This document shows positions 43,281 to 62,563 of a stretch of DNA of 64,000 bases, piece after piece. How positions within the stretch are numbered: the first letter of the stretch is position 1; each line of letters begins with the position of its first letter. The stretch spans positions 62,502 to 126,501 of the forward strand of contig CAYMEN010000003.1 in assembly GCA_964389325.1 (NCBI GenBank), in the 5' to 3' direction. A program made the position numbers and the translations under genes. The DNA is from an uncultured bacterium (GTDB lineage: Bacteria > Muiribacteriota > Ozemobacteria > Ozemobacterales > Ozemobacteraceae). The notes below the pieces were generated by a model, which searched no databases, was not told the DNA's origin, and saw nothing but the letters and a program-made list of their open reading frames with translations.

Positions 43281-43985
43281 GTGAGCGCGCGACTCTACTA
43301 CCTCCTTTCCGCCCTGCCGCCCCTGCCGGGGTTCGGCGAGCAGCTCCCGTGCGGCCTCGGCGACGTGCTCGCGGCCATGCGCGCGGAAGAGGACCCGACG
43401 CTCGACACCCTCGCGGACTGTTTCTCCGTCGAGCCGGCCCTGCGCGCGATGCAGAAAAGCCGCCTGGTCGGACATCTGCCCGAGCCGCCGGCCGACCTGA
43501 TGGAGCTTCTGCCCGACTGCATCCGGGAACGGGTCGCCGTCTGGCCGTCCCGCGAGGAGGAAGTCGCCTGGCACGAGAGCGTCTGCTTCGCCTGGTTCGA
43601 GTTCATGCACCGGACGGGCCACGCCATCGGTTCCAGACTGCTCCAGCGCTGGAGCGCCTGGGAAATGACCCTCGCCGTGTATCTGGCGAACGCTCGTGAT
43701 ACCGCGGAATCCGCCCCGGCGAAGGACCGCCCTGTTTCGCCTGAAGCCCCGGCCTTCGATTACGATGGGCTGGTGGCCGAATGGCACAACACCGCCGACC
43801 CGATGATCGGCGAGCACAAGCTCGACGAGGCCCGGTGCGCCTTCCTCGCCTCGGAATCGACCCGATACTCGTTCGAGATCGACGAACTCGTCTTCTACCT
43901 GCTGAAACTCAGACTGTTGTCCCGGTATGCCACTCTCGACCGGGGCACGGCGCTCAAGATACTCGAGGAGGTCACAGCCCTGTGA
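43281..43985 (+). CDS. V-ATPase operon-associated hypothetical protein (DUF2764-like position, as in Chlamydiae/Spirochaete V-ATPase operons)
   Basis: Located between subunit E and subunit A genes, exactly where the conserved hypothetical gene sits in Chlamydia and Borrelia operons; too short for subunit C. Confidence 0.45.
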   Translation: MSARLYYLLSALPPLPGFGEQLPCGLGDVLAAMRAEEDPTLDTLADCFSVEPALRAMQKSRLVGHLPEPPADLMELLPDCIRERVAVWPSREEEVAWHESVCFAWFEFMHRTGHAIGSRLLQRWSAWEMTLAVYLANARDTAESAPAKDRPVSPEAPAFDYDGLVAEWHNTADPMIGEHKLDEARCAFLASESTRYSFEIDELVFYLLKLRLLSRYATLDRGTALKILEEVTAL

Positions 43986-45721
43986 GCGTATCCGGACGCA
44001 TCGTAACGATATTTGGAAATATGGTAACCGCCGAGTTCGACGGCGCTGTCCGGCAGAACGCCGTCGCCTACTGCCACCGCGCCGACGGCGTGCGGCTGAT
44101 GGCCGAAATCATCCGCATCCGCGGGAACCGGGCCGACATGCAGGTCTTCGAGCTGACGCGCGGCCTCAAGGTCGGCGACACGGTCGATGTGACGGACGAG
44201 TTGCTCTCCCTCGAACTCGGGCCCGGCCTCCTCGGCCAGATCTACGACGGGCTGCAGAACCCGCTGCCGGTGTTCGCCGAAAAGGTCGGCAAGTTCCTCG
44301 AGCCCGGCAACTACTTCAAGCCGCTCAGCCGCGAGACGAAATGGGAGTTCACCCCGCTCGCGAAGACCGGCTCGACCGTTCGCGCCGCCGACGCGCTCGG
44401 CAAGGTGCAGGAAAGCATCTTCGACCATTACATCTTCGCCCCGTTCGATCTCGAAGGCGAGTGGAAGCTCAAGAGCCTCGTCGGGGCCGGGTCCTATACG
44501 ATCGAACAGACGATCGCCGAACTCGAGAACGCCGACGGAAAAACAATATCGGTAAATATGATAAACCGCTGGCCCGTCCGCATCCCGCTGACCCATTACG
44601 CCGAGCGGCTTCTGCCCGTGACCCCGCTGGTCACGAAGCAGCGCATCATCGACACGTTCTTCCCGATCACGCGCGGCGGCACCTACTGCATTCCCGGCCC
44701 GTTCGGCGCCGGCAAGACCGTTCTGCAGCAGATCACCAGCCGACACGCCGAGGTCGACGTCGTCATCTCCGCCGCCTGCGGTGAACGCGCCGGCGAGGTC
44801 GTCGAGACGCTTCGCGAGTTCCCGCACCTGACCGACCCGCGCACCGGCAAGACGCTGATGGAACGCACGATCATCATCTGCAACACGTCCAGCATGCCCG
44901 TCGCGGCCCGCGAGTCGTCCGTCTACACGGCCGTGACGCTCGGCGAATACTACCGTCTCCAGGGGCTTCACGTGCTGCTGCTGGCCGACTCGACCTCCCG
45001 CTGGGCCCAGGCCCTGCGCGAAATGAGCGGCCGCCTCGAGGAGATCCCCGGCGAGGAGGCCTTCCCGGCTTACCTCGAAAGCTCGATCGCCCGCTTCTAC
45101 GAGCGCGGCGGCTCGGTGAAACTGCGCGATGGCCGCGAAGCCTCGCTCACGATCGGCGGCGCCGTCAGCCCCGCCGGCGGCAACTTCGAAGAGCCGGTCA
45201 CGCAGGGCACGCTCAAGGTCGTCGGCTCGTTCCTCGGCCTGTCGTACGCCCGCTCCTACGCGCGCCGCTACCCCGCGATCGACCCGCTCGAGTCCTGGTC
45301 GAAATACCGCGGCATCATCGACGAAAAGAAGGTCGCCTGGGCCCGCTCGTTCCTGCGCCGCGGCCGCTCCGTCTTCGAGATGATGCAGGTCGTCGGCGAG
45401 GAAGGCACCTCGATGGACGATTACGTCGTCTACCTCAAGGGCGAGTTCCTCGACTCGGTGTACCTGCAGCAGAACTCGTTCGACGACGTCGACGCCGCCT
45501 GCCCGCCCGAGCGCCAGCAGGACCTGTTCGGCCGCGTCTGCCGCGTGCTCGAGCACGAGTTCTCCTTCGCCGACAAGGACGGGGCCCGCGACACGTTTTT
45601 CACGCTCACCGAGCAGTTCCGCAACTGGAACTACGCGAAGAGCGGCACGGATGCCATGAAGGATGCCGAAACGAAGATCGCGTCCTGCCTGCAGGCCGAC
45701 AAGGAGGCCGCCCATGCGTAA
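43982..45721 (+). CDS. atpA: V-type ATP synthase catalytic subunit A
   Basis: Walker A GPFGAGKT, non-homologous region, conserved A-subunit blocks; GTG start overlapping upstream stop. Confidence 0.95.
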
Positions 45722-47048
45722 ATACTACACCCGCATCGACCGCATCGCCGGAAACGTCGCCATGCTCAAGGCGACCAACGTCGGCTTCGAGGAGCTCGCC
45801 ATCATCGAGGGCCGCGTCGGCCGCTCGCTCGCCCAGGTCATCAAGGTGTCGGGCGAGGATGTCTCGCTTCAGGTCTTCTCGGGAACCCGCGGCCTGTCGA
45901 CCGGCGACCGCGTGAGCTTCCTCGGCTCGGCGATGCGCTTCAGCTTCTCCGAAGACCTTTTCGGCCGTATCTTCACGGGCGGCGGCGAGCCGCGCGACGG
46001 CCGCAGCACCCTCACCGAGAACCTCATCGAGGTCGGCGGCCCGGCTGTCAACCCGGCCGTGCGCCTCATGCCCAGCCGCATGATCGCCACGAACATCCCG
46101 ATGATCGACGTGTTCAACACCCTCGTCGAGGGCCAGAAACTGCCGATTTTCTCGATTCCCGGCGAGCCCTACAACGAACTGCTCGCGCGCATCGCCCTCC
46201 AGGCCGAGGCCGACGTCATCGTGCTCGGCGGCATGGGCCTCAAATACGACGAATACCTGTACTTCAAGCAACGTCTCGAGGAAGGCGGCGCCCTGTCGCG
46301 CACCATCATGTTCGTCCACACCGCGTCAGACCCGGTCGTCGAGTGCATGCTCACCCCCGATATCGCCCTGACCGTGGCCGAACGGTTCGCCGTGCAGGGA
46401 AAGCGCGTGCTGGTGCTGCTGACCGATATGACCAACTTCGCCAACTCGCTCAAGGAGATCGCGATCACGATGGAACAGATCCCGTCGAACCGCGGCTACC
46501 CGGGCGACCTGTATTCCCAGCTCGCCTCGCGGTACGAGAAGGCCGTCGTGTTCGACAACGGCGGTTCGCTCACGACGATGGCCGTCACCACGATGCCGGG
46601 CGACGACGTCACCCACCCGGTTCCGGATAACACCGGCTATATTACGGAAGGCCAGTTCTACCTGAAGGGCGGCTGGATCGAGCCCTTCGGCTCGCTCTCG
46701 CGCCTCAAACAGCTCGTCAACGGCCGCACCCGCGACGACCATCGCGCCATCATGGACGGCTGCATCCAGCTCTACTCGAAATGCCGCGAAACCCGCGAGA
46801 AGCGCGCCATGGGCTTCGAGATGTCGCCGTGGGACCTGAAGCTGATCCGGTACGGCGAGCAGTTCGAACAGCGGGTGATGGACCTGTCGGTCAACAATAC
46901 GCTCACCGTCGCCCTCGACCGGTGCTGGGAACTCCTGGCCGAGGTGTTCGAGCCGCGCGAGACCGGCATCCGGTCGGCGCTGTGCGAGAAATACTGGCCG
47001 AAGAAGGTGGGCGCCGTCGTCGAGACCGCCGCCCCCGACGGTCAGTAA
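45714..47048 (+). CDS. atpB: V-type ATP synthase subunit B
   Basis: Conserved B-subunit sequence (no functional P-loop: GMGLKYDE...), follows atpA. Confidence 0.95.
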
Positions 47049-47066
47049 CGCCGGAGACCGCCGCAG

Positions 47067-47681
47067 ATGGCTGAAAAGATCAAGAAAACCCGTCCGGAAC
47101 TGCTGAAGCAGAGACGATCGCTGGCCTTGTTCCAGCGGTTTCTGCCGACGCTCCTGCTGAAGAAACAGCAGATCCAGATGGAGATTCTGAAGGTGCGCAC
47201 GCAGCGCACGCGCATCCGCGAGGAGATCGACCGCATGGTTCGCCAGATCGAGCCGTGGCTCACCCTCTTCAGCGAGGATCTGCCCGGACGCGTGACGGAC
47301 CTGGTGCGCGTGAAGCGTCTCGAGCGCGGCGAGATGAACGTCGCGGGCATCCGCCTGCCGGTCTTGCGGCAGGTCGAGTACGAGATCGCCCCATACAGCC
47401 GGCTCGTGATGGCGGCCTGGGTCGATGCCGGCGTCGAGTTCGTGAAAAACCTGCTCCAGGAACGGGAACGGCTCAGAATCCTCGTCGAGCAGGAACGGCT
47501 GCTCCAGTCCGAACTTCGCAAGGTCACGCAGCGGGTGAACCTCTTCGAAAAAGTGATGATCCCGCGTGCGAAGGAGAACATCCGCACGATCCGGATCAAC
47601 CTCGCCGAAGAACAGACGGCGGGCGTCGGCCGCTCCAAGATTGCCAAGGGGAAATCCGCCGTCGGGGAGGAAGGCGCATGA
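47067..47681 (+). CDS. atpD: V-type ATP synthase subunit D
   Basis: About 200-aa coiled-coil central-stalk protein with typical N-terminal KxxLxxL heptads. Confidence 0.85.
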   Translation: MAEKIKKTRPELLKQRRSLALFQRFLPTLLLKKQQIQMEILKVRTQRTRIREEIDRMVRQIEPWLTLFSEDLPGRVTDLVRVKRLERGEMNVAGIRLPVLRQVEYEIAPYSRLVMAAWVDAGVEFVKNLLQERERLRILVEQERLLQSELRKVTQRVNLFEKVMIPRAKENIRTIRINLAEEQTAGVGRSKIAKGKSAVGEEGA

Positions 47682-49432
47682 TCCAGGAAATGCGTCGCGT
47701 GTATATCGCGGCCCGCCAGGGTGATCGCCAGTCCGTTCTCGCGGCCCTGTTCGCCGCCGGTGTCGTGCATGTCGAACCGGCCCGCCCCGACGCGGTGAAG
47801 CCATCCGCCGAACTGGCGCATGACCTGGCCCGAGGCGAGAAAGCCCTCCAGGCGATCGATGCCGTCGAACCGTCTGTCGACGCCGTCGCGGCCCCCCCGG
47901 GAACCCCGGCGCGGCTGATCGACGAGGTGCATGCGCAGCTCGTCCTGATCGAACGCCTCCACACGGACCGCCAGGAACTCAAGCGGGAGCTCGCCCAGGT
48001 GAAGCCCTGGGGCCGCATCAGCCAGGCGGATCTGGAAAAGCTCGTCGCGGCGGGACTTACCATCCGTTTCTGCATCTGCCCCCCGGCGTATATCGCTGAC
48101 TCTATAACTGCTGATATTATACAAGGAATCAACGTTGCGGACGGCGTGCTGGCGGTTCTCGCCGTGAGCCGCGGTTCCGTCGAGGTCAGGCCCCCCGCGC
48201 AGGCGGTTCCCGTCCCGTCACGGGACGCCACGGAGATCGAGGCGGCTCTCGCCACGCTCAAGGAGGAGGAACGGCGCCTGTCCGGCCAGCTCCGCGAACT
48301 CGCCATGCGGCGGGAGGACGTGCGGAGCTATCTGGCCGAACTGAAAGAGCGCATCTCATTCCAGACCGTCGAGGCCGGGCTTGCCGAAGAAGGCCCCGTT
48401 TACATCATGCAGGGCTGGGTGCCGGAAAATCACGTCGAGGCGCTTCATACCGCTCTCGAGGGAACCAGGCTTCCCATCGGTGTCGTGACGCAGGCGCCGG
48501 CCGCCGACGAGGCGCCGCCGACGGCATTTTCGAACTCGCCCTGGGTGCGGCCCGTCGAGTGCCTGTTCTCCCTGCTCGGCGTCACGCCGGGCTATCGCGA
48601 GGCCGACATCAGCCCGGCGTTCCTGCCGTTCCTCACGATCTTCACCGCCATGCTCGTCGCGGACGCCGGATACGGCATCGTGGCGCTCGTCGCCCTGCTG
48701 GCGGCCCGGAAGCCCCTGATCTCGCGGGGCGTGCCGGAACAGGTGCTGACGCTGTTCACGATCCTGTTCGCGGGGGTCGCTGGGTGGGGCGTGTTGACGA
48801 ACGCCTGGTTCGGGGCGCCGCTGATGAGCAAGGCGCTGATCCTGACCGGCGACCAGCAGAAGGACGAACTGTTCCTGAAACAGCTGTGCTTCCTCATCGG
48901 CGCCGTTCACCTGACGGTCGCGCACGTCTGGAAGATCCGGCGCGCCGCGCTCGGTCTCACGACGATCGCCGAGGCCGGGTGGGTGCTGTTCATCTGGGCC
49001 ATGTGGGCGCTGGTCGAAGTGCTCGTGAATGGCAGCCCGGCGCCGTTCTGGATGCTGCCGCTGTTCGGCGTGTCCCTGTTCATGATCGTCCTGTTCACGG
49101 ATTTTTCGTGGAACCTGTTCGCGGCGGTGGGAAAGGGGCTCGGCGCCGTCGCTCTCAACGCGGCGGGTTTCCTCGGGGATATCATCAGCTATATTCGCCT
49201 CTGGGCCGTCGGGCTTGCCGGAGGCGTTTTGGCGGCGAGTTTCAACGAGATGGTGCGGCCGCTTCCCCTGCTGCTCGTCGTCGTGATCCTGGTGGCGGCC
49301 CATCTGCTCAACTTCGCGCTCGGTCTCGTCGCGATCTTCGCGCATGGGGTGCGGCTGAACCTTCTCGAGTTCTCGAATCATCTCGGTATGGAATGGACGG
49401 GGCGCGGATACGACCCGTTCGGGAAAAAGTAA
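47678..49432 (+). CDS. atpI: V-type ATP synthase subunit I (a-subunit, membrane sector)
   Basis: About 580 aa; cytoplasmic N-terminal coiled-coil half and polytopic C-terminal half with conserved Arg-containing helix (IISYIRLWAVGLA); ATGA overlap with atpD. Confidence 0.85.
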   Translation: MIQEMRRVYIAARQGDRQSVLAALFAAGVVHVEPARPDAVKPSAELAHDLARGEKALQAIDAVEPSVDAVAAPPGTPARLIDEVHAQLVLIERLHTDRQELKRELAQVKPWGRISQADLEKLVAAGLTIRFCICPPAYIADSITADIIQGINVADGVLAVLAVSRGSVEVRPPAQAVPVPSRDATEIEAALATLKEEERRLSGQLRELAMRREDVRSYLAELKERISFQTVEAGLAEEGPVYIMQGWVPENHVEALHTALEGTRLPIGVVTQAPAADEAPPTAFSNSPWVRPVECLFSLLGVTPGYREADISPAFLPFLTIFTAMLVADAGYGIVALVALLAARKPLISRGVPEQVLTLFTILFAGVAGWGVLTNAWFGAPLMSKALILTGDQQKDELFLKQLCFLIGAVHLTVAHVWKIRRAALGLTTIAEAGWVLFIWAMWALVEVLVNGSPAPFWMLPLFGVSLFMIVLFTDFSWNLFAAVGKGLGAVALNAAGFLGDIISYIRLWAVGLAGGVLAASFNEMVRPLPLLLVVVILVAAHLLNFALGLVAIFAHGVRLNLLEFSNHLGMEWTGRGYDPFGKK

Positions 49433-49444
49433 GGAGCTGAAACC

Positions 49445-49942
49445 ATGATTGAACTGCTTGGCAAGTTTGCGTGTGGTCTCGTTCTCGGCCTTGGCGGCAT
49501 CGGAAGCTGCCTCGGTATCGTCTCCGCCGGCACGGCGGCAGCCGGCGCCTGGGCAAGCGAAGGAAAAGCAGGCAGGAACCTGTCGTTCCAGTACATCATC
49601 ATGGTTGCGGCGCCCATCAGCCAGACGCTCTATGCGATGATCGTCATGCTGACCATGATCAAGGTTGCCGGCAATCCCGAAAACGCCCTGCTGTGTCTCG
49701 GCGTCGCCCTCGGAACCGGCATCATCGAGCTTTTCTCGGCCTGGTATCAGGGCCTCATCGGCGCCGCCGGCATCCGCGCGATGGTCGAGAATGGCGGCAA
49801 GGGATTCGGCCTGCTGATCATCGCCCTCGGCATCATCGAGACCGTCGGGATCTTCGGCATGGTGTTCGGCCTCCAGATCCTCAACTCGCCGCTCGCGAAA
49901 GCGATCGCCGAAGCCGGCGCCGCGGCCGCCGGAGCGCAGTAA
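49445..49942 (+). CDS. atpK: V-type ATP synthase proteolipid subunit K
   Basis: 4-TM glycine-rich proteolipid with conserved Glu (IIETVGIFG). Confidence 0.9.
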   Translation: MIELLGKFACGLVLGLGGIGSCLGIVSAGTAAAGAWASEGKAGRNLSFQYIIMVAAPISQTLYAMIVMLTMIKVAGNPENALLCLGVALGTGIIELFSAWYQGLIGAAGIRAMVENGGKGFGLLIIALGIIETVGIFGMVFGLQILNSPLAKAIAEAGAAAAGAQ

Positions 49943-49985
49943 GTTTCCTCTTCGGCGAAGCGCTTCCCGCTTCACCGGTCTCGAA

Positions 49986-50027
49986 CATCGGGTTTTTCGG
50001 GCAAACACCGGAAAACCCGATGTTTTT
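49986..50027 (+). terminator. rho-independent terminator of V-ATPase operon
   Basis: CATCGGGTTTTTCGG gcaaaca CCGGAAAACCCGATG followed by TTTTT. Confidence 0.7.
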
Positions 50028-50072
50028 GCGTGAATACTGCGCGCTGTTGCTAAAGACCGTGACGGGGCCGTT

Positions 50073-50580
50073 TCACTGACCGGCCCGGAGCGGCTGCTTC
50101 TCGACCTTGATGTTGCCGATCCAGACGGTTCCGGGGCCATCGAGAACGAGGTTCAGGATGATCTTCCGGACCGATACGCCGGGCTGATTGACCGCGAACG
50201 GGATTCTCACGGTTTTCCAGTCGGAATCCCCCGATACGACCTGATCGAGTCCGCGGGAGAAATAGCGACCTTGTGGCTCGGTTTCCACCCACATCTCGAG
50301 AAGCGCCCCGTTCGCGACACCCTGTGTTTTCAGATCGGCCTGGAACCAGATAGTGGCGTTCTCGATGTGCTGCGATTCGATCTCTCCGACGCAGATCTGG
50401 GCCGAGTGGGGCGAGGAGAGTTTCAGGGAGCTTTTGCCGGCGATCTTGGTCGTCTCGTCCAGGACGATCCTGGTTTTCACCTGGTCGAGGGAATCGAACG
50501 CGATCGTCTGAATCTCCTGGGAAAAAGACGGGCCGCAGGTCAGGAGAAGGAGAAGAAGCGGAGCGAGAATTTTACTCATG
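50073..50580 (-). CDS. hypothetical secreted protein (169 aa)
   Basis: Signal peptide MSKILAPLLLLLLTCGPSFSQE; directly downstream of the 951-aa gene on the same strand. Confidence 0.45.
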
Positions 50581-50657
50581 TGAGCCTCCGGAAGGTGAAT
50601 ATGAGGAATCATCAGCCTGGTGCCGGCTGTCTTCCCTGGTCGGGGCAATCGCCTGCA

Positions 50658-53513
50658 TCAGGCGTGTTTGCGGAAGTGCCGGAGCCAGGCGAGGAATTTT
50701 TCGGTCTGGGAGCCGATCAGTTCGGTCAGGAGAATCGCCTCGCGGTCCTGGTAGTTCTTGAGGGCGAACTCCGACAGCAGGTTGAGGCAGCCGGGGTCGC
50801 TGAACAGTTCGAGCAGGCGGTCGAAATGATGCCTGAACTCCTCGGCCTTTTTCTGCCGCTCCTCGGTCGAAAGGCTGGGACGACGCAGTTTGAGCCGCTC
50901 GAGGAGGGACAGCGGCTGGTTGAACAGCTGGGAGAGGCAGGTCGGGCCCCGGGGCTGGCGCGCCCAGATATACAGGATGTCGAGCATCGCGGTGAGCCGC
51001 ATGTCGCGATCGTGCGAACTCAGGCGCGGAAGCAGTTCGCTGAGGTCGCGCTTGCGGATGACGACGCGCTGTCTGTATTTCCCGAAGCCTTCGATGAAGC
51101 CGCCGACGACGTCCGACCAGAGTTTCGCCTGGACGATGCTCGGGATGCCGATCAGGTTCCCGATCGGCGCGAAGGCCGTCGCGAACGGCCAGGCGAGCAC
51201 CGTGCGGAAGAAGTTCGCCCGGATGACGCGTCGGTCGAAGTTGCGCAGCCTGTTGTGGGTGCTGATGTAGATCCCGTTCGCCATGCACAGGAAGAAAAAC
51301 TTGGCGGCCTCGAACAGGAAGCCCGCCTTTTCGAGCGGCCAGCTGTCGTCGAACGCGATCTTCACGAAGCCGAGGATCGGGACACTGAAACCGGTCCAGA
51401 ATAAAGACTGTGATATATTATCAAAGTTGACGTTGCGCAGGCTCCAGTTCCGGATGAGGATCCCGGAGCTGGCGAGCAGGTCGACCAGCATGTTCCGGGT
51501 GCCGGTGATCAGGAACCAGATCACGGCGAACATCACGCCGGCCAGCTGGCCGAACTGGTAGTTCATGAACGAGAACGCCACGATGAACCCGATGGCGATG
51601 CGCCAGAGGCTCTTGAGGCCGGGGTTCACATACGCCCAGAACTCGCCGGGCGGAACGAGGTCGAGCGCTTCCTCGTCTCCGACCAGGTTCCGGAAGGGCT
51701 TGCCGATTTTGCCCATGCAGACGACGTCCGACCCGCTGCCGATCGGCGCATCGGGGCTGTCGTCCTTCTTCCCGTCGTGGATGACGAGGTCGGCGATCGG
51801 CCGGGGGACCTTGTAGTGTGACTCGAGAAACTCGGGGCGCACCGACTCGGGAATGTCGCTGACCTTGATGAAACCCATTCCCGGGATCGTCGGGTCGCGG
51901 CCGGTCGAATCGCTGCCGCAGACCGGGATCAGCGGCCGGCGCGCGGTGAGTTCCCGGGCCTTTTGCACCTGCTGCCGGACGCCGCCCGTGATCCCGTGCT
52001 GTTCGAGGAAGTTCACGACGTCGTCCTCGGTGCCGTTGTTGAGCAGGTAGACGAACTTGTTGAAGATGATCAGGTCGTTCGGGTTGCGCGCCGAGCTGTC
52101 GCGCAGGTTCAGCGTCTCGATGTGCGAGATGCGGGCGATGTGCTTGAGCAGGTGCTGCATCGAGTCCTTGAGCCCGATCTCGAGGGGGTGGATCATGACG
52201 ATCCGGCCGCCCTGGCCGATCAGGGTGTCGAGTATCGGCTCCTCCTCGGCGAACTCGCTGTCGTAATCGACGACGTCCCGGCCCTCCATGTAGGAGGCCC
52301 GCAGGCTTTCCGGCGTCATCGTCTCGTACTGCTCGCGCACGGCCTCATACTGCGACGAGATGTTCTTGAACTCCCACTCGCTGTAGATGCCCCGCGTGAG
52401 GCGGTCTTCGGCGGCGAGCACCTGCGCCTTCAGCTGGAGGACGCGGCGCTGGAGGATGTCGCGGAACTTCTGGAACAGCAGTTCGCCGATATGGACTCTC
52501 GAAATCTGCCCGCACGCAACGATCCGGTCGAGCTCCTCGAGGGTGAGCGGCGGGAACCAGCAGGGGCTGTCGGGTTCCCAGCCGGAGTTGAGCCGTGGCC
52601 GCTGGAGCGTGTTGAACCGCTCGACGGCGGCGACCATCGTCTTGTGGCGGCTCGCCGCGTTCGTGCGGAGGCCGCTCAAAAACGGGGTGAAAATCATCCG
52701 GCGCTCGTCGAAAAACGCGAAAAACGCTTTGCTGTCGGCGGTTTCGGGCGGCACGTACATGTAGTGACGCCGGGCGCCGCTGTGGCCGACGCTGAACTCG
52801 ATACCGATGTTCACCTTGATGCCGAGAATGTTGCCGGCGGTGATCGCCTCATGGATCATCCGGCGCTCGTCGAGGTTCGAATACACGATGGTGAGCCGGG
52901 AAATGCCCTTCACGAAAGCGTCCAGCAGCACCTGCGTCGGGGTCTTGCGGCCTTCCGACAGGAAGTCGTGAACGTGGTCGTCCCAGCCCATGTTCAGCTC
53001 GCGGAGCGGCTTTTCCTCTTCGGGGACTTCGACCAGGTGGAGTTTGTTCAGGAACCGGCGGACGACCGCTTCCTGCCCGAACGAGACCAGGCCGAAGTCG
53101 GCCATGGCTTCCATCTGGCGCCGGCGGTTGCTGCGCGATTTGACGACTTCCTTCATCAGGTCGATCTGGATGCGCGCCGTGTTCAGCGGCATGTTGATCG
53201 TCTTCGCGTGGAGGGACTGGTCGACCATCATCGAGAGGGCGGCCAGCCGCTCCTCGGCGGAGTTCGGAGAAAGGTCACGCGCGATCTTGATGTAGGCGCC
53301 GGCGATGCTGAGACGCCGCTTGCCGAAATCGCGAACGAAGCCGCCGGGGTGGGAGAGGTGCCGGACGTTCAGCCGGGTCGGGGGTTCGTCGAGTTTGTGG
53401 TTGACGGCATCGACCAGCGACTCGATTTCGTTGTTGAAGCTCAGCCACTCGATCAGGCTGGACAGCAGACCGACAGCCGTGTCGTGGGATGTTTGCAGCA
53501 GCCAGCGGAGCAT
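50658..53513 (-). CDS. large hypothetical membrane protein (951 aa): about 600-aa soluble N-terminal region, then a multi-TM block, then a C-terminal soluble region
   Basis: Continuous ORF with coding GC3 bias; hydrophobic helices between about residue 600 and 800 (e.g. WRIAIGFIVAFSFMNYQFGQLAGVMFAVIWFLITG); no motif recognised. Confidence 0.5.
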   Translation of the reverse strand: MLRWLLQTSHDTAVGLLSSLIEWLSFNNEIESLVDAVNHKLDEPPTRLNVRHLSHPGGFVRDFGKRRLSIAGAYIKIARDLSPNSAEERLAALSMMVDQSLHAKTINMPLNTARIQIDLMKEVVKSRSNRRRQMEAMADFGLVSFGQEAVVRRFLNKLHLVEVPEEEKPLRELNMGWDDHVHDFLSEGRKTPTQVLLDAFVKGISRLTIVYSNLDERRMIHEAITAGNILGIKVNIGIEFSVGHSGARRHYMYVPPETADSKAFFAFFDERRMIFTPFLSGLRTNAASRHKTMVAAVERFNTLQRPRLNSGWEPDSPCWFPPLTLEELDRIVACGQISRVHIGELLFQKFRDILQRRVLQLKAQVLAAEDRLTRGIYSEWEFKNISSQYEAVREQYETMTPESLRASYMEGRDVVDYDSEFAEEEPILDTLIGQGGRIVMIHPLEIGLKDSMQHLLKHIARISHIETLNLRDSSARNPNDLIIFNKFVYLLNNGTEDDVVNFLEQHGITGGVRQQVQKARELTARRPLIPVCGSDSTGRDPTIPGMGFIKVSDIPESVRPEFLESHYKVPRPIADLVIHDGKKDDSPDAPIGSGSDVVCMGKIGKPFRNLVGDEEALDLVPPGEFWAYVNPGLKSLWRIAIGFIVAFSFMNYQFGQLAGVMFAVIWFLITGTRNMLVDLLASSGILIRNWSLRNVNFDNISQSLFWTGFSVPILGFVKIAFDDSWPLEKAGFLFEAAKFFFLCMANGIYISTHNRLRNFDRRVIRANFFRTVLAWPFATAFAPIGNLIGIPSIVQAKLWSDVVGGFIEGFGKYRQRVVIRKRDLSELLPRLSSHDRDMRLTAMLDILYIWARQPRGPTCLSQLFNQPLSLLERLKLRRPSLSTEERQKKAEEFRHHFDRLLELFSDPGCLNLLSEFALKNYQDREAILLTELIGSQTEKFLAWLRHFRKHA

Positions 53514-53711
53514 GTTCCGATCCAGATCCTTTCTCGATGCCGGCGTCAGCCGGATGCCGTGATCGTGCTGTTACGTCTTTTGCGTATAACACAAAAAGGG
53601 AAAACCCGCCCCACTCCCGACCCGATTTCCGAAGTCGGAGCGAACGCAACAGGGTTTCCCTCGGACCTCGTGATTATAACCTCGCGATCGGGATAATTCA
53701 ATCGGAAGGTG

Positions 53712-53720
53712 TGATATAAT
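53712..53720 (+). promoter_or_regulatory. extended -10 element TGaTATAAT upstream of glmM
   Basis: TG at 53712-53713 and TATAAT at 53715-53720, 33 nt upstream of the glmM ATG; no convincing -35. Confidence 0.35.
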
Positions 53721-53753
53721 TGGTTCATTCATCACGTCCCCGGAGGTTTTTCC

Positions 53754-55103
<1,350 letters not shown>

Positions 55104-55140
55104 CGGGGAAACGGTGCGGACGATGCAAGAGCCCGGTACG

Positions 55141-55731
55141 ATGAGACGTCTTTCGAGACGACTCGCCGTTCTCTTTGCCGCTGCTCTGTTGCTTGCTGCG
55201 GGGTGCAGCCGAAAATCGCAGGGTCCGGGCGTGAATGGCCCCGGGAAAAAAGGGGCGGAATCTGCCGCCCGGCCCGGCCAGGCTTCCGGCACGACCTCGC
55301 CGGCAGGCACAGGAAATGGCGCCATTTCATCGGGTGGCGCAGCCCTTCCGGATCGTGGCGAGATACAGAAGACATCCATGACTCCCGCCATCAGACGCGA
55401 GTTTGAGCGTCGGTATGAGAAAGGCATCGCGCTCCTCGAAAAGCAGGACTACGGCGAAGCCTCGCGCATTTTCGAGCAGCTTCTCTCCGAGAGCTCCGAT
55501 CCGCAGGACGCGAGCATTGCCGCCTACTGCCTCGCCGAGATCTGCTTCCGGAACAAGTCGAATGCACGGGCCCTCGAACTGTTCAAGGAAATCGTCGAGA
55601 AGTATCCCGGCACTCCGGCCGCCGACAACGCGAAGGCCGGGATCGAATACCTCGAGAATTTCCACAAGCACGAGGCAGAGTACGTTTCCCCGGACGTGGA
55701 GGATCGGAAGCGCCGGGGAGCGGGCCGGTGA
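55141..55731 (+). CDS. TPR-like lipoprotein (lipobox LAAGC), YbgF-like
   Basis: MRRLSRRLAVLFAAALLLAAGCS lipoprotein signal; Gly/Ser-rich linker; C-terminal TPR-like helices. Confidence 0.55.
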   Translation: MRRLSRRLAVLFAAALLLAAGCSRKSQGPGVNGPGKKGAESAARPGQASGTTSPAGTGNGAISSGGAALPDRGEIQKTSMTPAIRREFERRYEKGIALLEKQDYGEASRIFEQLLSESSDPQDASIAAYCLAEICFRNKSNARALELFKEIVEKYPGTPAADNAKAGIEYLENFHKHEAEYVSPDVEDRKRRGAGR

Positions 55732-55762
55732 GGGCCCCGTGCGGCGAAAAGGGCGGAATGGC

Positions 55763-56242
55763 ATGAAACAGGCGTTCGAACGGCGGCACGGCTTCTCGAT
55801 CATCGAGGTGCTCCTGGCGATGCTCATCATCGGGGCCGGCGTCGTGCCGGTGTTGTCGCTGTTTCTGACCGGTTCCCGCACCGTCGAGAAAGGCGGCCTG
55901 CTGCTGTCGGCCACCATCGCGGCCCAGAACGTTCTCGATCGCGCGAAGAGCGACGCGTTTCTCTGGGGCAACGTTCCGCTCACCCTCGATTTTCCCGACC
56001 CCGATCATCCGCAGTTCACGCTGCCCGCCTTTTTCGCGAAAAAATACAACGCCTCTGGAACCCTGATCATCGAGGAGGCTCCCGGACACACGGTCATCGG
56101 CACCGGTGAGAAGGAGACGAGCCTGGTCCAGATCAGCGTCATCATCCGCTGGATCGAAAACAAGACCGGGCGTTCGACCAGGCTCGTGACATACCGCGCG
56201 AACACGAACTGCTTCGACCTGAAAACATCCGCGAAATTCTGA
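55763..56242 (+). CDS. prepilin-type N-terminal cleavage/methylation domain protein (pseudopilin-like)
   Basis: RRHGFSIIEVLLAMLIIGAGVV prepilin leader/helix. Confidence 0.6.
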   Translation: MKQAFERRHGFSIIEVLLAMLIIGAGVVPVLSLFLTGSRTVEKGGLLLSATIAAQNVLDRAKSDAFLWGNVPLTLDFPDPDHPQFTLPAFFAKKYNASGTLIIEEAPGHTVIGTGEKETSLVQISVIIRWIENKTGRSTRLVTYRANTNCFDLKTSAKF

Positions 56243-56277
56243 TGAACCGCGAGGAGCACGTGAGGGACAACCCCGTG

Positions 56278-56895
56278 ATGACCCGACCGAGGAGCGGTTT
56301 TACGCTCGTCGAATTGTCTATATCTGCGGTTATTATATCGTTGATCGGCCTCGTTCTCGTGGCGGTCTTCCGCAGCAACCTCGCCACCTGGAAATGGGGC
56401 CAGGAGCACATGGAGTTCAACCAGAAGGTCCAGCTCGCCATGAAACAGGTGTTCACCGACATCAAGCGCATCAACCCCGTCGTCCTCACCGACACCCGGG
56501 GGAATCTCTGGTTCAAGGGAGAACGCATCGGTGACCTGTTCCCGAACGTCATCGAGGTCGTCGACACCGACAAACTACCGGAAAACGGAGGCGAGGAGTT
56601 GATCTTCCAGCACACGACCTACCGTCGGCCCGGCGAGAGGACACAGGTGCGGCTGTTTCTCGAGAAGGAGGCCCTCATGCGCGAGACGACGGACCAGAAC
56701 GGGTCCCGTTCCCGCGTCGTGATTTCCGACAGGGTCTCGAACCTGCATTTCCTCCGCAACACGGCTGATATCAACGAGATTTCCGTTACCATGACCATCG
56801 CGGACGACATGAATCCGAAACTCATCGAGGAGCTCGTCTTCGCCGTCCGTCTCGACACCGATCTCGTGTGCGTGAAAGCGAGGGACGGCTCATGA
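56278..56895 (+). CDS. prepilin-type N-terminal cleavage/methylation domain protein (pseudopilin-like)
   Basis: MTRPRSGFTLVELSISAVIISLIGLV; GAGGGA RBS before ATG 56278 (upstream in-frame ATG 56242 lacks RBS). Confidence 0.6.
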   Translation: MTRPRSGFTLVELSISAVIISLIGLVLVAVFRSNLATWKWGQEHMEFNQKVQLAMKQVFTDIKRINPVVLTDTRGNLWFKGERIGDLFPNVIEVVDTDKLPENGGEELIFQHTTYRRPGERTQVRLFLEKEALMRETTDQNGSRSRVVISDRVSNLHFLRNTADINEISVTMTIADDMNPKLIEELVFAVRLDTDLVCVKARDGS

Positions 56896-57386
56896 CCGGC
56901 AGGAGCGGTTCGAAGCGCGGGTTCATCGCGTTCTACTCGTTCATTCTTCTCCTCATCCTGGCCATTTTCGGCATCTCCTACTGGGCCGTTTCGCGCCTCT
57001 CGACCAGTTCCATCGTCCAGGAGGCCGGCCGCATCCGCGCGAGATGTCTCGCCCAGGCGGGCGTCGAGAAGGTGTTGATCAACATCGTCAACCAATACCG
57101 GCTGGGCAACCGCAATCTCGGGTATCCGGGCAAGTTCAGCCGCGACCGCACCGACAAGGAATACAACGTCGAGTTCGGGGACGGCTCGTACCGGGTCGAG
57201 TCGGTCCAGCCCTACACGGCGCCGGGCAGCAGCAAGGTCATGACGCAGGTGCCGTATTACCAGCGCCAGACGGTCATCGGGACCTACGACATCTGGAAGA
57301 TCGTCGTCGTCGGAGAAGTGCCGGAAGGCCCCCAGGCGCGGGTCGAGACGCTTGTCAAGATTATCAGGCAGTATGCCCGATACTGA
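56892..57386 (+). CDS. GspK-like / uncleaved pseudopilin-like membrane protein
   Basis: KRGFIAFYSFILLLILAIFGISYWAV N-terminal helix resembling GspK; ATGA overlap with upstream pseudopilin. Confidence 0.4.
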   Translation: MTGRSGSKRGFIAFYSFILLLILAIFGISYWAVSRLSTSSIVQEAGRIRARCLAQAGVEKVLINIVNQYRLGNRNLGYPGKFSRDRTDKEYNVEFGDGSYRVESVQPYTAPGSSKVMTQVPYYQRQTVIGTYDIWKIVVVGEVPEGPQARVETLVKIIRQYARY

Positions 57387-57411
57387 GGGACGGAGCCGTG
57401 GGAGGAAATAT

Positions 57412-58725
57412 ATGATAAAGTATACAAATACGGCATGGGGACTCGCTCGCGCCGCGCTTCTCGGAGGAATCCTGCTCGTTTCCGCCGCCGACGCCCGGGC
57501 GGCCAATGACGGCCCGCAGTTCGACGGGTTTTCCGCCAAGGTGTCGGGTGATATCTACGGCCAGCCCCGGGTCATCGAGGACATGGACGGGGACGGGAAA
57601 CAGGACCTGATCTTCGGCGCCACGGACGGCAAGGTACATGTCTACTCGTCGACCGGCAAGGAGATCATCCGGCCGCCGAACTGGCCGAAACAGACGGGAG
57701 CGCCGATCCTTTCCGACGTGTCGGTCGCCGACCTCGACAACGACGGGAGCTCCGAGGTCATCGTCAGCTCCCTGAACGGGAAGGTTTACTGCATGGACCG
57801 CCGGGGCGTCCAGAAATGGGAAGTGAACACCCGCGGCACGATCCGTCTCTCGTCCCCCGAGGTCGCCGACGTCGACGGGGCGGGCAACATGTCCGTCTTC
57901 ATCGGATCGAAAGCGGGCACCGTGAGCCGGATCGACAAGGACGGGCGGCTGATCTGGGAGGTCCCGATGTCGACCTCCGTCTCGTCGCGCGTCGTCGCTG
58001 CCGACATCAACGGCGACGGCACCAAGGAGCTCGTCGCCAAGGACGACAACGGGAAGGTGACGATCCTGAACATGCGCGGCTCTGTGGAGAGCGGCTGGCC
58101 CCAGTCGACGGTCCCGAACCTGACCTGGCCCTTCGAAGTCGGTGCCGGCGACGTCAACGGCGACGGCGTCAAGGAGATCTTCACGACGACGCCTGAAAAA
58201 AAGTTTTTACTATGGAACAGGGACGGCAGCCTCCGGACGCAGTTCGGCCTTTCCGACGCGTCGCATTCGGCCCCTCGTCTTGCGGACCTGAACGGGGACG
58301 GCCGCGACGAGTTCGTCATCGGCCAGGCGGACGGGGTGGTGATGGTCTGCGATCGTGATGGCAAGCCGCTCCCGGGATGGCCCTTCAAGACGAGGCATTC
58401 GGTCTATCACACGCCGCAGGTGATCGACGTCGACGGCGATGGCCGGCTCGACGTGGTGTTCACGGCCTGGAACCCCGAAGGCGTCGGCAAACAGGCGGGC
58501 TACGTGATGGCGCTGAGCCGCGACGGGAGCCCGCTTCACGGATACCCGAAATACATCGGGAAATCCATCGCCCCGCTGACGTTTGCCGATCTCGACGACG
58601 ACGGGTATCTCGAGATGATCGCCGCGGGCGGCATCAACTACACCGACGACCAGCTCCACGTCTTCCCGACCGGCGCCCGCGTCCAGATACGGCTGGCGAT
58701 TCTCGGCAGCGAGGTGTCGTTCTGA
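57412..58725 (+). CDS. secreted FG-GAP/integrin-alpha-like beta-propeller protein with repeated D-x-D/N-G-D-G calcium-binding loops
   Basis: Signal peptide; eight D.DGDG-type loops (DMDGDGKQD, DLDNDGSSE, DVDGAGNMS, DINGDGTKE, DVNGDGVKE, DLNGDGRDE, DVDGDGRLD, DLDDDGYLE) at about 45-55-aa intervals; GGAGG RBS. Confidence 0.65.
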   Translation: MIKYTNTAWGLARAALLGGILLVSAADARAANDGPQFDGFSAKVSGDIYGQPRVIEDMDGDGKQDLIFGATDGKVHVYSSTGKEIIRPPNWPKQTGAPILSDVSVADLDNDGSSEVIVSSLNGKVYCMDRRGVQKWEVNTRGTIRLSSPEVADVDGAGNMSVFIGSKAGTVSRIDKDGRLIWEVPMSTSVSSRVVAADINGDGTKELVAKDDNGKVTILNMRGSVESGWPQSTVPNLTWPFEVGAGDVNGDGVKEIFTTTPEKKFLLWNRDGSLRTQFGLSDASHSAPRLADLNGDGRDEFVIGQADGVVMVCDRDGKPLPGWPFKTRHSVYHTPQVIDVDGDGRLDVVFTAWNPEGVGKQAGYVMALSRDGSPLHGYPKYIGKSIAPLTFADLDDDGYLEMIAAGGINYTDDQLHVFPTGARVQIRLAILGSEVSF

Positions 58726-62372: not shown

Positions 62373-62563
62373 TCAATGAAGACCTGTGCAAGGGTTGCGG
62401 GATCTGTATCGCCCGCTGTCCGCAGAAGGTGCTTGGCGTCTCCGACAGCCTGTCTGCGAAGGGATACCATCCGACGAAAATGCTGAACGAAGAGAAGTGC
62501 ACTTCGTGCGCGCTGTGCGGCCGAAGCTGTCCCGACGTGGCTATCGAAGTTTATAAAGCCTGA
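62357..62563 (+). CDS. korD: 2-oxoacid:ferredoxin oxidoreductase delta subunit (2x[4Fe-4S] ferredoxin)
   Basis: Two CxxCxxCxxxCP clusters (CKGCGICIARCP, CTSCALCGRSCP), 68 aa, upstream of korA. Confidence 0.8.
   Translation: MPKWVINEDLCKGCGICIARCPQKVLGVSDSLSAKGYHPTKMLNEEKCTSCALCGRSCPDVAIEVYKA

Follow-up and report, generated by a model that had tools for sequence, protein, structure and literature searches.

A predicted PHP-type domain joined to a six-helix membrane module in a conserved, unnamed family of bacterial proteins

The gene analyzed here lies on the minus strand of contig CAYMEN010000003.1 (GenBank assembly GCA_964389325.1) from an uncultured bacterium of the Ozemobacteraceae, within a stretch of 64,000 nucleotides (positions 62,502 to 126,501 of the contig; hereafter the window, whose numbering is used throughout), and encodes a protein of 951 residues. 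The protein is a member of a conserved, unnamed inner-membrane family that is rare yet found across many bacterial phyla, and structural modeling identifies its soluble core as a divergent domain of the PHP metal-dependent phosphoesterases. As an earlier note on the window had described, the open reading frame (ORF) is long and GC-biased at the third codon position (GC3), with values of 0.61, 0.39 and 0.90 at positions 1, 2 and 3, and its composition is typical for real genes in the window (~62% GC). The described surroundings and topology are likewise borne out: V-type ATPase genes (subunits A, B, D, I and c; positions 43781–49942, plus strand) converge on the gene, glmM (phosphoglucosamine-mutase type, with four PGM_PMM domains; 53754–55103) diverges from it, and the product consists of a soluble part (residues 1–630), a cluster of hydrophobic helices (632–794) and a soluble helical tail (816–951). 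The AlphaFold model of the protein has a predicted local distance difference test score (pLDDT) of 82.9 and a predicted template modeling score of 0.71, and the features assigned at the locus are collected in Table 1.

Table 1. Features of the locus of the 951-residue protein, in window coordinates
Feature	Coordinates	Strand	Basis
Multi-domain inner-membrane protein, 951 residues; coding sequence including stop codon	50658..53513	minus	ORF list, GC3, full-length homologues, AlphaFold model
N-terminal all-helical domain, residues 1–170	53004..53513	minus	model secondary structure, conservation in 212 members
Predicted PHP domain, first half, residues 171–260	52734..53003	minus	strands b1–b4; G-W-D178-D-H180-V-H182-D183, E239 (GIEFS), H250
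Enlarged helical insertion in the predicted PHP barrel, residues 261–433	52215..52733	minus	corresponds to the insertion domain of TrpH/RNase AM-type enzymes
Predicted PHP domain, second half, residues 434–560	51834..52214	minus	I-H442-P-L-E, I-E466-T-L-N469, G-S-D535-S-T537, P-G-M-G-F 544–548
Linker from PHP domain to membrane module, residues 561–630	51624..51833	minus	lowest family conservation, no residue ≥95%, pLDDT 63–76
Six-helix membrane module, residues 631–815	51069..51623	minus	hydropathy, models, K+R counts, conservation
C-terminal helical, basic domain, predicted cytoplasmic, residues 816–951	50661..51068	minus	models; K+R 26 vs D+E 18; conservation
ORF of 168 residues, signal-peptide-like N-terminus MSKILAPLLLLLLTCGPSFSQ	50073..50579	minus	translation; GGAGG ribosome-binding site; 78 nt downstream of the large gene
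Leader hairpin (53598–53662) with run TTTTTGTGTT (53588–53597)	53588..53662	minus	fold, ortholog conservation
Sigma-70-like promoter match TTGAAT-17-TATAAT	53673..53701	minus	consensus scan; just upstream of the leader hairpin

Of the candidates scored in a search for homologues through 5.8 billion protein clusters, 155 matched the 951-residue protein at E ≤ 1e-3, nearly all of them full length (910–1017 residues) with identities of 35–95%, and none with a precomputed Pfam domain. The nearest derive from metagenome-assembled genomes (MAGs) of Candidatus Ozemobacteraceae/Riflebacteria, with identities of 95%, 91% and 87%; remoter ones are present in the complete genomes of Desulfonema limicola and D. 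ishimotonii, and in Desulfococcus, Bradymonadales, Eremiobacterota and Bacteroidales. When 1.84 billion representative proteins were searched exhaustively with a profile, 444 matched at E ≤ 1e-3, among them a sister subfamily of ~1000–1050 residues with the same architecture, which is represented by at least 555 metagenome stretches. Among 185,579 species, each scanned through a single genome, 237 matching stretches were identified in at least 10 phyla, the taxa being Riflebacteria, Wallbacteria, Desulfobacterales, Myxococcota, Spirochaetota, Bacteroidota, Vulcanimicrobiota, Aminicenantes, Omnitrophota, Synergistia and Chloroflexota. The family is thus present in ~0.1% of species genomes, its hosts are mostly uncultured anaerobes, and its members range from about 910 to 1050 residues. 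The label of orphan that the protein had been given does not survive these counts. The family has no name in curated libraries, and no description of its architecture was found in the domain libraries and literature searched.

The membrane module as a stand-alone protein or as part of other fusions was considered and rejected; the short matches, on which no Pfam domain was found, are contig-edge fragments or pieces of a single split gene. The latter (L092, from the Desulfobacterales MAG GCA_041390465.1) reads as three ORFs in a row (513, 50 and 326 residues), as would result from frameshifts in a pseudogene or from faulty assembly. Some genomes hold two to three paralogues, e.g., bacterium ADurb.Bin157 (L034 and L037) and Vulcanimicrobiota ER2 (L076, L081 and L083), which suggests that substrate or regulation has diversified. 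The sister subfamily (~1000 residues) reaches the human gut, where it was found on a metagenome contig (L132), and is not confined to sediments and digesters.

The earlier note had seen no recognisable domains in the protein, which holds for profile libraries but not for structure. Searches of Pfam, NCBIfam and PDB sequences with the whole protein, with a 36-sequence profile and with the C-terminal half gave sub-threshold PHP hints, plus noise (pKID, MIS12, RuvA). Pfam has no match to the protein, PF02811 included, and just 2 of the 36 family members reach E = 0.054 with that model; two PHP equivalogs of NCBIfam (NF041577, NF041661) align far below threshold at residues 177–250, with 27.5 bits (cut-off 500) and 17.7 bits (cut-off 400); and the family profile finds the PHP phosphoesterase 3e0f among PDB sequences at only E = 0.03. 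Structure comparison, however, reveals a clear PHP domain with the distorted (β/α)7 barrel of this superfamily, for which the nearest relatives are RNase AM and PHP enzymes of the 3',5'-nucleotide bisphosphate phosphatase type, with the PHP domains of Pol III α, PolC, EndoQ, HisK, YcdX and CpsB ranking lower. More than 250 residues are aligned of a 280-residue enzyme, and therefore the helical insertion typical of TrpH/RNase AM is also present in the window protein; its motifs align to RNase AM by hhalign with E = 0.0042, at low probability against the single sequence.

The motifs of the PHP domain occur in identical order in E. coli RNase AM and in the window protein, where DLHSHTTASDG corresponds to DDHVHDFLSEG, GVEIS to GIEFS, EIHIV to RRHYMYV, TERRNQRAQ..GAVTRGHFARFL to TNAASRHKT..GQISRVHIGELL, LAHPGRY to MIHPLEIG, MEVAQ to IETLN, and GSDFH to GSDST. 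The last of these represents a GSDxH motif that has lost its histidine. The insertion keeps N285, R289 and a G-Q-x-S-R-x-H motif, of which N285 and R289 do not vary among the 36 aligned sequences. We assign the soluble core, as predicted from the models, to a divergent PHP metal-dependent phosphoesterase domain of the TrpH/RNase AM (COG0613) type. The window protein is a distant offshoot that stands outside the NF041577 and NF041661 enzyme families proper, because its scores are sub-threshold and the γ-metal site is lost. For the N-terminal helical domain no relative is known; its family-wide conserved residues are P56, G58, R89, N111, R114, K121, F140, G146 and R152.

The PHP metal site comprises nine residues (PMC11656708, PMC6616362). 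In characterised enzymes the α metal is bound by an HxH motif and the Asp of a DxH motif, the β metal by two His, a Glu bridges α and β, and the γ metal is bound by Asp, His and the His of DxH; the α and β metals activate the attacking water, and the γ metal polarises or stabilises the leaving group (PMC11656708). The window protein holds six of these nine ligands, namely H180, H182 and D535 for α, the bridging E239, and H250 and H442 for β, and is therefore short of the trinuclear, nine-ligand site; the γ positions are occupied by E187, N213 and T537 in place of the canonical residues. Conservation was examined in 212 full-length family members, in which D178 (100%), E466 (99%), D183 (98%), N469 (97%), H182 (94%), E239 (93%) and H180 (92%) are kept nearly throughout, followed by D535 (82%), H250 (64%) and H442 (47%). 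All four α-site ligands are present in 159 of the 212 members (75%) and all six α/β ligands in 91 (43%), the window protein among them, whereas the γ site is absent from the entire family and the last γ position is never His (0/212). Substitutions of α/β ligands are lineage-specific in places: the Desulfonema group carries D535A and H442R, and in one subgroup HxH has turned into RxH, RxY, GxY or LxY. The PHP domain is thus predicted to hold a divergent, at most binuclear site, because the γ positions are E187, N213 and T537 and the last γ His never occurs, and this site is partly eroded in some lineages.

Hydrophobic segments are confined to residues 632–794, where the AlphaFold helices of the membrane region extend over residues 631–832. 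Six membrane helices (631–815) are found both in the full-length model and in a separate model of residues 600–951 (pLDDT 87.7). Lys and Arg number 2, 6 and 9 in the loops after transmembrane helices (TM) 2, 4 and 6 against 0, 1 and 0 in the alternate loops, and hydropathy gives no signal peptide or hydrophobic segment at the N-terminus; because of this positive-inside distribution and the N-terminus without signal peptide, both large soluble parts are predicted to be cytoplasmic. The membrane module and the first half of the PHP domain are the best-conserved regions of the family. Sixteen membrane residues are at least 95% conserved (A646, W666, T670, R673, T707, G708, S710, N746, G747, Y749, R757, R770, P776, K797, S800 and E808), and the conserved charged and polar residues form a chain along TM2, TM4, TM5 and TM6. 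A signature of seven residues, R673/R757/R770/K797/E808/Y749/N746, is kept at six or more positions in 202 of the 212 members, and the constant of the family is accordingly the membrane module, not PHP catalysis. In the C-terminal domain, D845 is the sole near-invariant residue.

No relative of the membrane module was detected. Pfam and NCBIfam give no match to it, the profile of residues 600–951 finds nothing better than E = 0.12 among PDB sequences, and Foldseek against the PDB, i.e., against solved structures only, returns nothing at E ≤ 0.001. In these sequence libraries and solved structures there is no resemblance to MFS/GlpT, PAP2, UppP, CDP-alcohol phosphatidyltransferase or Lipocone proteins; the Lipocone superfamily had been considered via a paper mentioning PHP neighbours, and was rejected as being without fold or sequence support.

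Upstream of the gene, the inverted repeat pointed out in the earlier note is indeed present, with arms GGGAAAACCC (53598–53607) and GGGTTTCCC (53652–53660). On the sense (minus) strand these arms close a hairpin of ~65 nt (−30.7 kcal/mol) that abuts the run TTTTTGTGTT, which begins 84 nt before the ATG. The promoter, which is no more than a match to the consensus, agrees with it at 10 of 12 positions, and one such match was found where 0.4 were expected; close orthologs keep the hexamer region. Judged from the window alone, which has 13 comparable repeat pairs in 451 bp and a whole-leader fold z-score of −1.44, the repeat had at first been taken for mere chance, a view that was dropped after comparison with orthologs. 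Orthologs at 86–95% protein identity keep both arms and the T-run, two of them with a compact version of the hairpin, and leader elements were seen across loci L011–L035, 30–90 nt upstream of the orthologous start codons. Defined as a hairpin of ≤ −10 kcal/mol abutting a T-run 28–87 nt before the start codon, the element is present in 19 of 29 Riflebacteria orthologs, compared with 9 of 87 shuffled sequences. On the reverse complement, used as a further control, 10 of 29 score, for the most part since an A-run flanks many of the hairpins as well.

In a clade of 11 sequences the consensus is an 11-bp stem, CTGTTGCC...GGCAACAG, followed by TTTTTT, and displays compensatory changes at two pairs as well as several changes of U-A or C-G to U-G, the latter preserving the pairing solely in the sense-strand RNA. 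An Rfam search of 49900–53900 at E ≤ 1 gave no match. The leader hairpin is conserved as a structural class across Riflebacteria orthologs. With a stable hairpin and U-run, both conserved and lying between promoter and start codon, it has the predicted properties of an intrinsic terminator or attenuator in the leader and looks like one; alternatively, it possibly acts as a 5' stabilising hairpin. The same hairpin class, together with a divergent glmM, occurs at two loci labeled Erysipelotrichia (L021) and Candidatus Methylomirabilis sp. (L023) that encode orthologs of 54–55% identity; as both carry the Riflebacteria-specific arrangement and leader class, these contigs were probably mis-binned or the MAGs mislabeled.

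Downstream of the large gene, the small secreted protein that had been noted there corresponds to the 168-residue ORF with its signal-peptide-like start. Its GC3 of 0.76 is coding-like, it has no Pfam or NCBIfam match, and its sole match among the 5.8 billion clusters is itself, at identical sequence. The ORF is missing from the locus of the 95%-identical ortholog (L011), in which just 262 bp lie between the large gene and that of the V-ATPase c subunit, and it sits in ~450 bp of extra DNA not present in that locus; it is therefore either a very recent gain or was lost in the relatives. Nor is it found at loci of 87%, 67% and 63% identity, where porin-like, GalT and histidine kinase genes occupy its place. 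The 168-residue ORF is a strain-specific orphan outside the conserved unit, and the proposed co-occurrence of the two proteins was not seen when checked, so that the small protein was rejected as a partner of the large one.

Gene neighbourhoods were surveyed at 83 genome loci, at which the flanking ORFs were clustered, and at 77 metagenome loci. A universal operon partner was sought and rejected, as none exists across these loci. Conserved synteny is confined to Riflebacteria (51–100% identity), with glmM, a TPR lipoprotein gene, pseudopilin genes and an FG-GAP propeller gene on one side and the convergent V-ATPase operon on the other, and in many Riflebacteria the V-ATPase c-subunit gene directly adjoins the large gene. 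The remaining genes that recur nearby are of generic kinds (ABC ATPases, response regulators and histidine kinases, LysR). A gene for a glycerophosphodiester phosphodiesterase (GDPD; PF03009, E = 1e-55) directly precedes the family gene in four Desulfobacterales loci, on the same strand and 5 bp apart or overlapping. A clade of the sister subfamily (L091, L099, L107, L108 and L109, from metagenomes and MAGs) has an operon that consists, in this order, of the gene for the PHP-membrane protein, a GDPD gene and glpA-glpB-glpC; the central proteins are 73–92% identical to one another, and the upstream genes are mutually unrelated. At L115 other genes stand in place of GDPD, and glpA- and glpC-like genes are kept. 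The family member is the only membrane protein of the GDPD-glpABC operons, which encode no GlpT- or Ugp-type transporter. The lead offered by the neighbourhoods is metabolism of glycerophosphodiesters, glycerol-3-phosphate (G3P) or phospholipid head groups. A histidine phosphatase gene adjoins the family gene upstream in two spirochaete loci.

Two further adjacencies were set aside as functional links since each is limited to a single lineage. In Desulfonema limicola (L001; CP061799.1, 6530801–6549596) the ortholog dnl_61210 begins 13 bp past a ptsP-like gene for a GAF-domain enzyme I, itself preceded by an EIIA-Man gene, which suggests co-transcription with a module like the nitrogen phosphotransferase system in this one genome. 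In Desulfococcaceae, a GNAT acetyltransferase gene precedes the family gene at L092 and three other loci. Within the window, the conserved Riflebacteria cluster downstream of glmM (55114–58725; also at L006, L008 and L009) comprises a TPR/YfiO-like lipoprotein gene, two to three genes with a pseudopilin (N-terminal methylation) motif and an FG-GAP β-propeller gene, and may be a module related to type IV pili or type II secretion systems.

We are highly confident of the structural description, i.e., of a conserved family with fixed architecture, a domain of the PHP type, a membrane module and cytoplasmic ends. The polypeptide runs from a cytoplasmic N-terminal helical domain through the PHP domain into the six-helix module, with both ends of that module on the cytoplasmic side, and on to the C-terminal helical domain. 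As to function, we infer tentatively, and with somewhat less than even confidence, a membrane-coupled binuclear phosphoesterase for an anionic phosphate substrate. The protein would use its two metals to cleave phosphoesters on the inner side of the membrane, and this activity would be linked to a pocket or pathway within the membrane where an anionic, phosphate-bearing compound is bound. The substrate may be of the glycerophospho type (a phospholipid head group, a glycerophosphodiester or G3P), for which gene context is the one hint, and expression in Riflebacteria would be gated by the terminator-like leader hairpin; substrate identity and coupling of the PHP domain to the membrane are guesses. 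Several observations weigh against this preferred reading. At least one α-site ligand is lost in 53 of the 212 members and all six α/β ligands are present in just 43%; since 46 of those 53 nevertheless keep the membrane signature, PHP catalysis cannot be the universal function of the family. By analogy with characterised PHP enzymes, loss of the γ site would remove the Lewis acid that these enzymes use. Moreover, neighbours vary between phyla, and the GDPD link, seen at about 9 of 160 loci and in no Riflebacteria, counts as no more than two independent occurrences. The same signature retention, which extends to the RxH, RxY, GxY and LxY subgroups, and the chain of charged and polar residues along the helices agree with the main rival, in which the membrane module does the work, as a transporter, a channel or an enzyme of the membrane that handles an anionic solute, and the PHP domain has a regulatory or structural part. 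In the glp operons of E. coli the G3P permease gene glpT stands next to glpQ, and it is this slot that the sole membrane protein of the GDPD-glpABC operons fills; a precedent for a structural, ligand-depleted PHP domain is given in PMC3666897. On the other hand, the window protein and 43% of the family hold all six α/β ligands and 75% the four α-site ligands, and this retention in most members argues for metal chemistry that has been kept, while six helices are few for a secondary transporter unless it is oligomeric. We consider such an effector rather unlikely.

The nearest structural relatives act on nucleotides, RNase AM being a diribonuclease and 5'-3' exonuclease (PMC11528712, PMC7261194). 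The nucleotide-binding insertion domain is kept, with the conserved R289 and the S-R-x-H motif, and throughout Riflebacteria the family gene is divergent from glmM, which agree with a membrane-anchored phosphodiesterase for second messengers or short RNA (pAp, pApA/pGpG, cyclic dinucleotides) that uses the membrane module as a sensor. In Firmicutes, glmM is genetically linked to synthesis of cyclic di-AMP (cdaA-cdaR-glmM). However, the glmM adjacency is limited to one phylum, is divergent and may be inherited synteny; cyclase, GGDEF, DAC or other signaling genes do not recur nearby at the loci surveyed; the membrane module is conserved beyond the level usual for a sensor or anchor; and strictly conserved residues hold the three metals of RNase AM (PMC11528712), whereas the family never has the γ site, all of which makes a nucleotide phosphodiesterase improbable. 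Hardly credible is the reading of the earlier note, that an orphan protein and the small secreted protein form a novel transporter or signaling system. Co-transcription may occur in this strain, as the small ORF has a good ribosome-binding site and the minus strand between both ORFs has no predicted terminator-like site, and the membrane half has no known relative; but the large protein has many homologues, the small ORF has none and is missing at all related loci, that of the 95% ortholog included, and in many Riflebacteria the V-ATPase c-subunit gene lies directly beside the large gene. What stands of that proposal is a large membrane protein of no curated family, with a membrane half lacking a solved relative and a possible role of this kind; its orphan status and the pairing with a secreted protein do not. 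A bolder reading, to which we attach very little probability, would make the six-helix R/R/R/K/E/Y/N module a new class of permease or enzyme for glycerophospho-compounds that fills the GlpT/Ugp slot in some anaerobes and is controlled by antitermination in Riflebacteria; if this were true, the binuclear PHP domain would receive its glycerophosphodiester, G3P or phospholipid head group from the module, which would import the compound or draw it out.

The PHP assignment makes the 951-residue protein less mysterious than had been held, and turns an apparent orphan into a defined, still uncharacterised protein family with testable residues. The family represents an unusual, membrane-integrated branch of the PHP superfamily in which the third metal site is lost in every member, and, with ligands eroding in some lineages, a natural series from enzyme towards pseudo-enzyme. 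The finding has as yet no bearing on any long-standing open question; the membrane module, being without solved relative, reasonably invites structure determination as well as transport and lipid-phosphate assays.

Among known systems, the closest comparison is with TrpH/YciV, i.e., RNase AM of COG0613 (E. coli Rnm; V. cholerae RNase AM, PDB code 9etk; Bifidobacterium BAD_1165, PDB codes 3o0f and 3e0f). Shared with these enzymes, in the same order, are HxH, E, H, the R...R and G-x-x-(S/T)-R-x-H of the insertion, (A/I)HP, E-x-x-N and GSD, and the window protein has the α- and β-metal ligands. The differences are an identity of 17–21% and a score of 27.5 bits against the NCBIfam cut-off of 500, the family-wide lack of γ-metal ligands, an insertion of ~170 residues compared with ~100, and the context of a 951-residue membrane protein with additional N- and C-terminal domains, where the COG0613 enzymes are soluble proteins of ~290 residues.

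PgpH (seven transmembrane helices and HD) and GdpP are membrane-anchored nucleotide phosphodiesterases, and resemble the family in joining a multi-helix membrane module to a cytoplasmic metal-dependent phosphoesterase. Their catalytic fold is HD or DHH, however, instead of the predicted PHP; the membrane module of the family is C-terminal to the enzyme domain and has invariant charged residues of its own; and no sequence or fold relation was detected in Pfam or by PDB fold search. Erosion of ligands in part of the family recalls the PHP domain of E. coli DNA polymerase III α, as described in PMC3666897, and suggests by analogy a non-catalytic PHP role in the eroded members; in contrast to Pol III α, most members keep all four α-site ligands and the window protein a complete α/β site, and there is no polymerase context. 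With bacterial glpT-glpQ and ugp the family shares, in two lineages only, the occurrence in an operon with GDPD and glpABC genes, and no homology to GlpT (MFS) or Ugp was detected. Animal glycerophosphodiesterases of the GDE2/GDPD5 type have six membrane helices and a phosphodiesterase domain (PMC11394063), and thus a combination of parts like that of the present family, in which, however, the putative catalytic domain is of the PHP type and cytoplasmic, while that of GDE2/GDPD5 is GDPD and extracellular.

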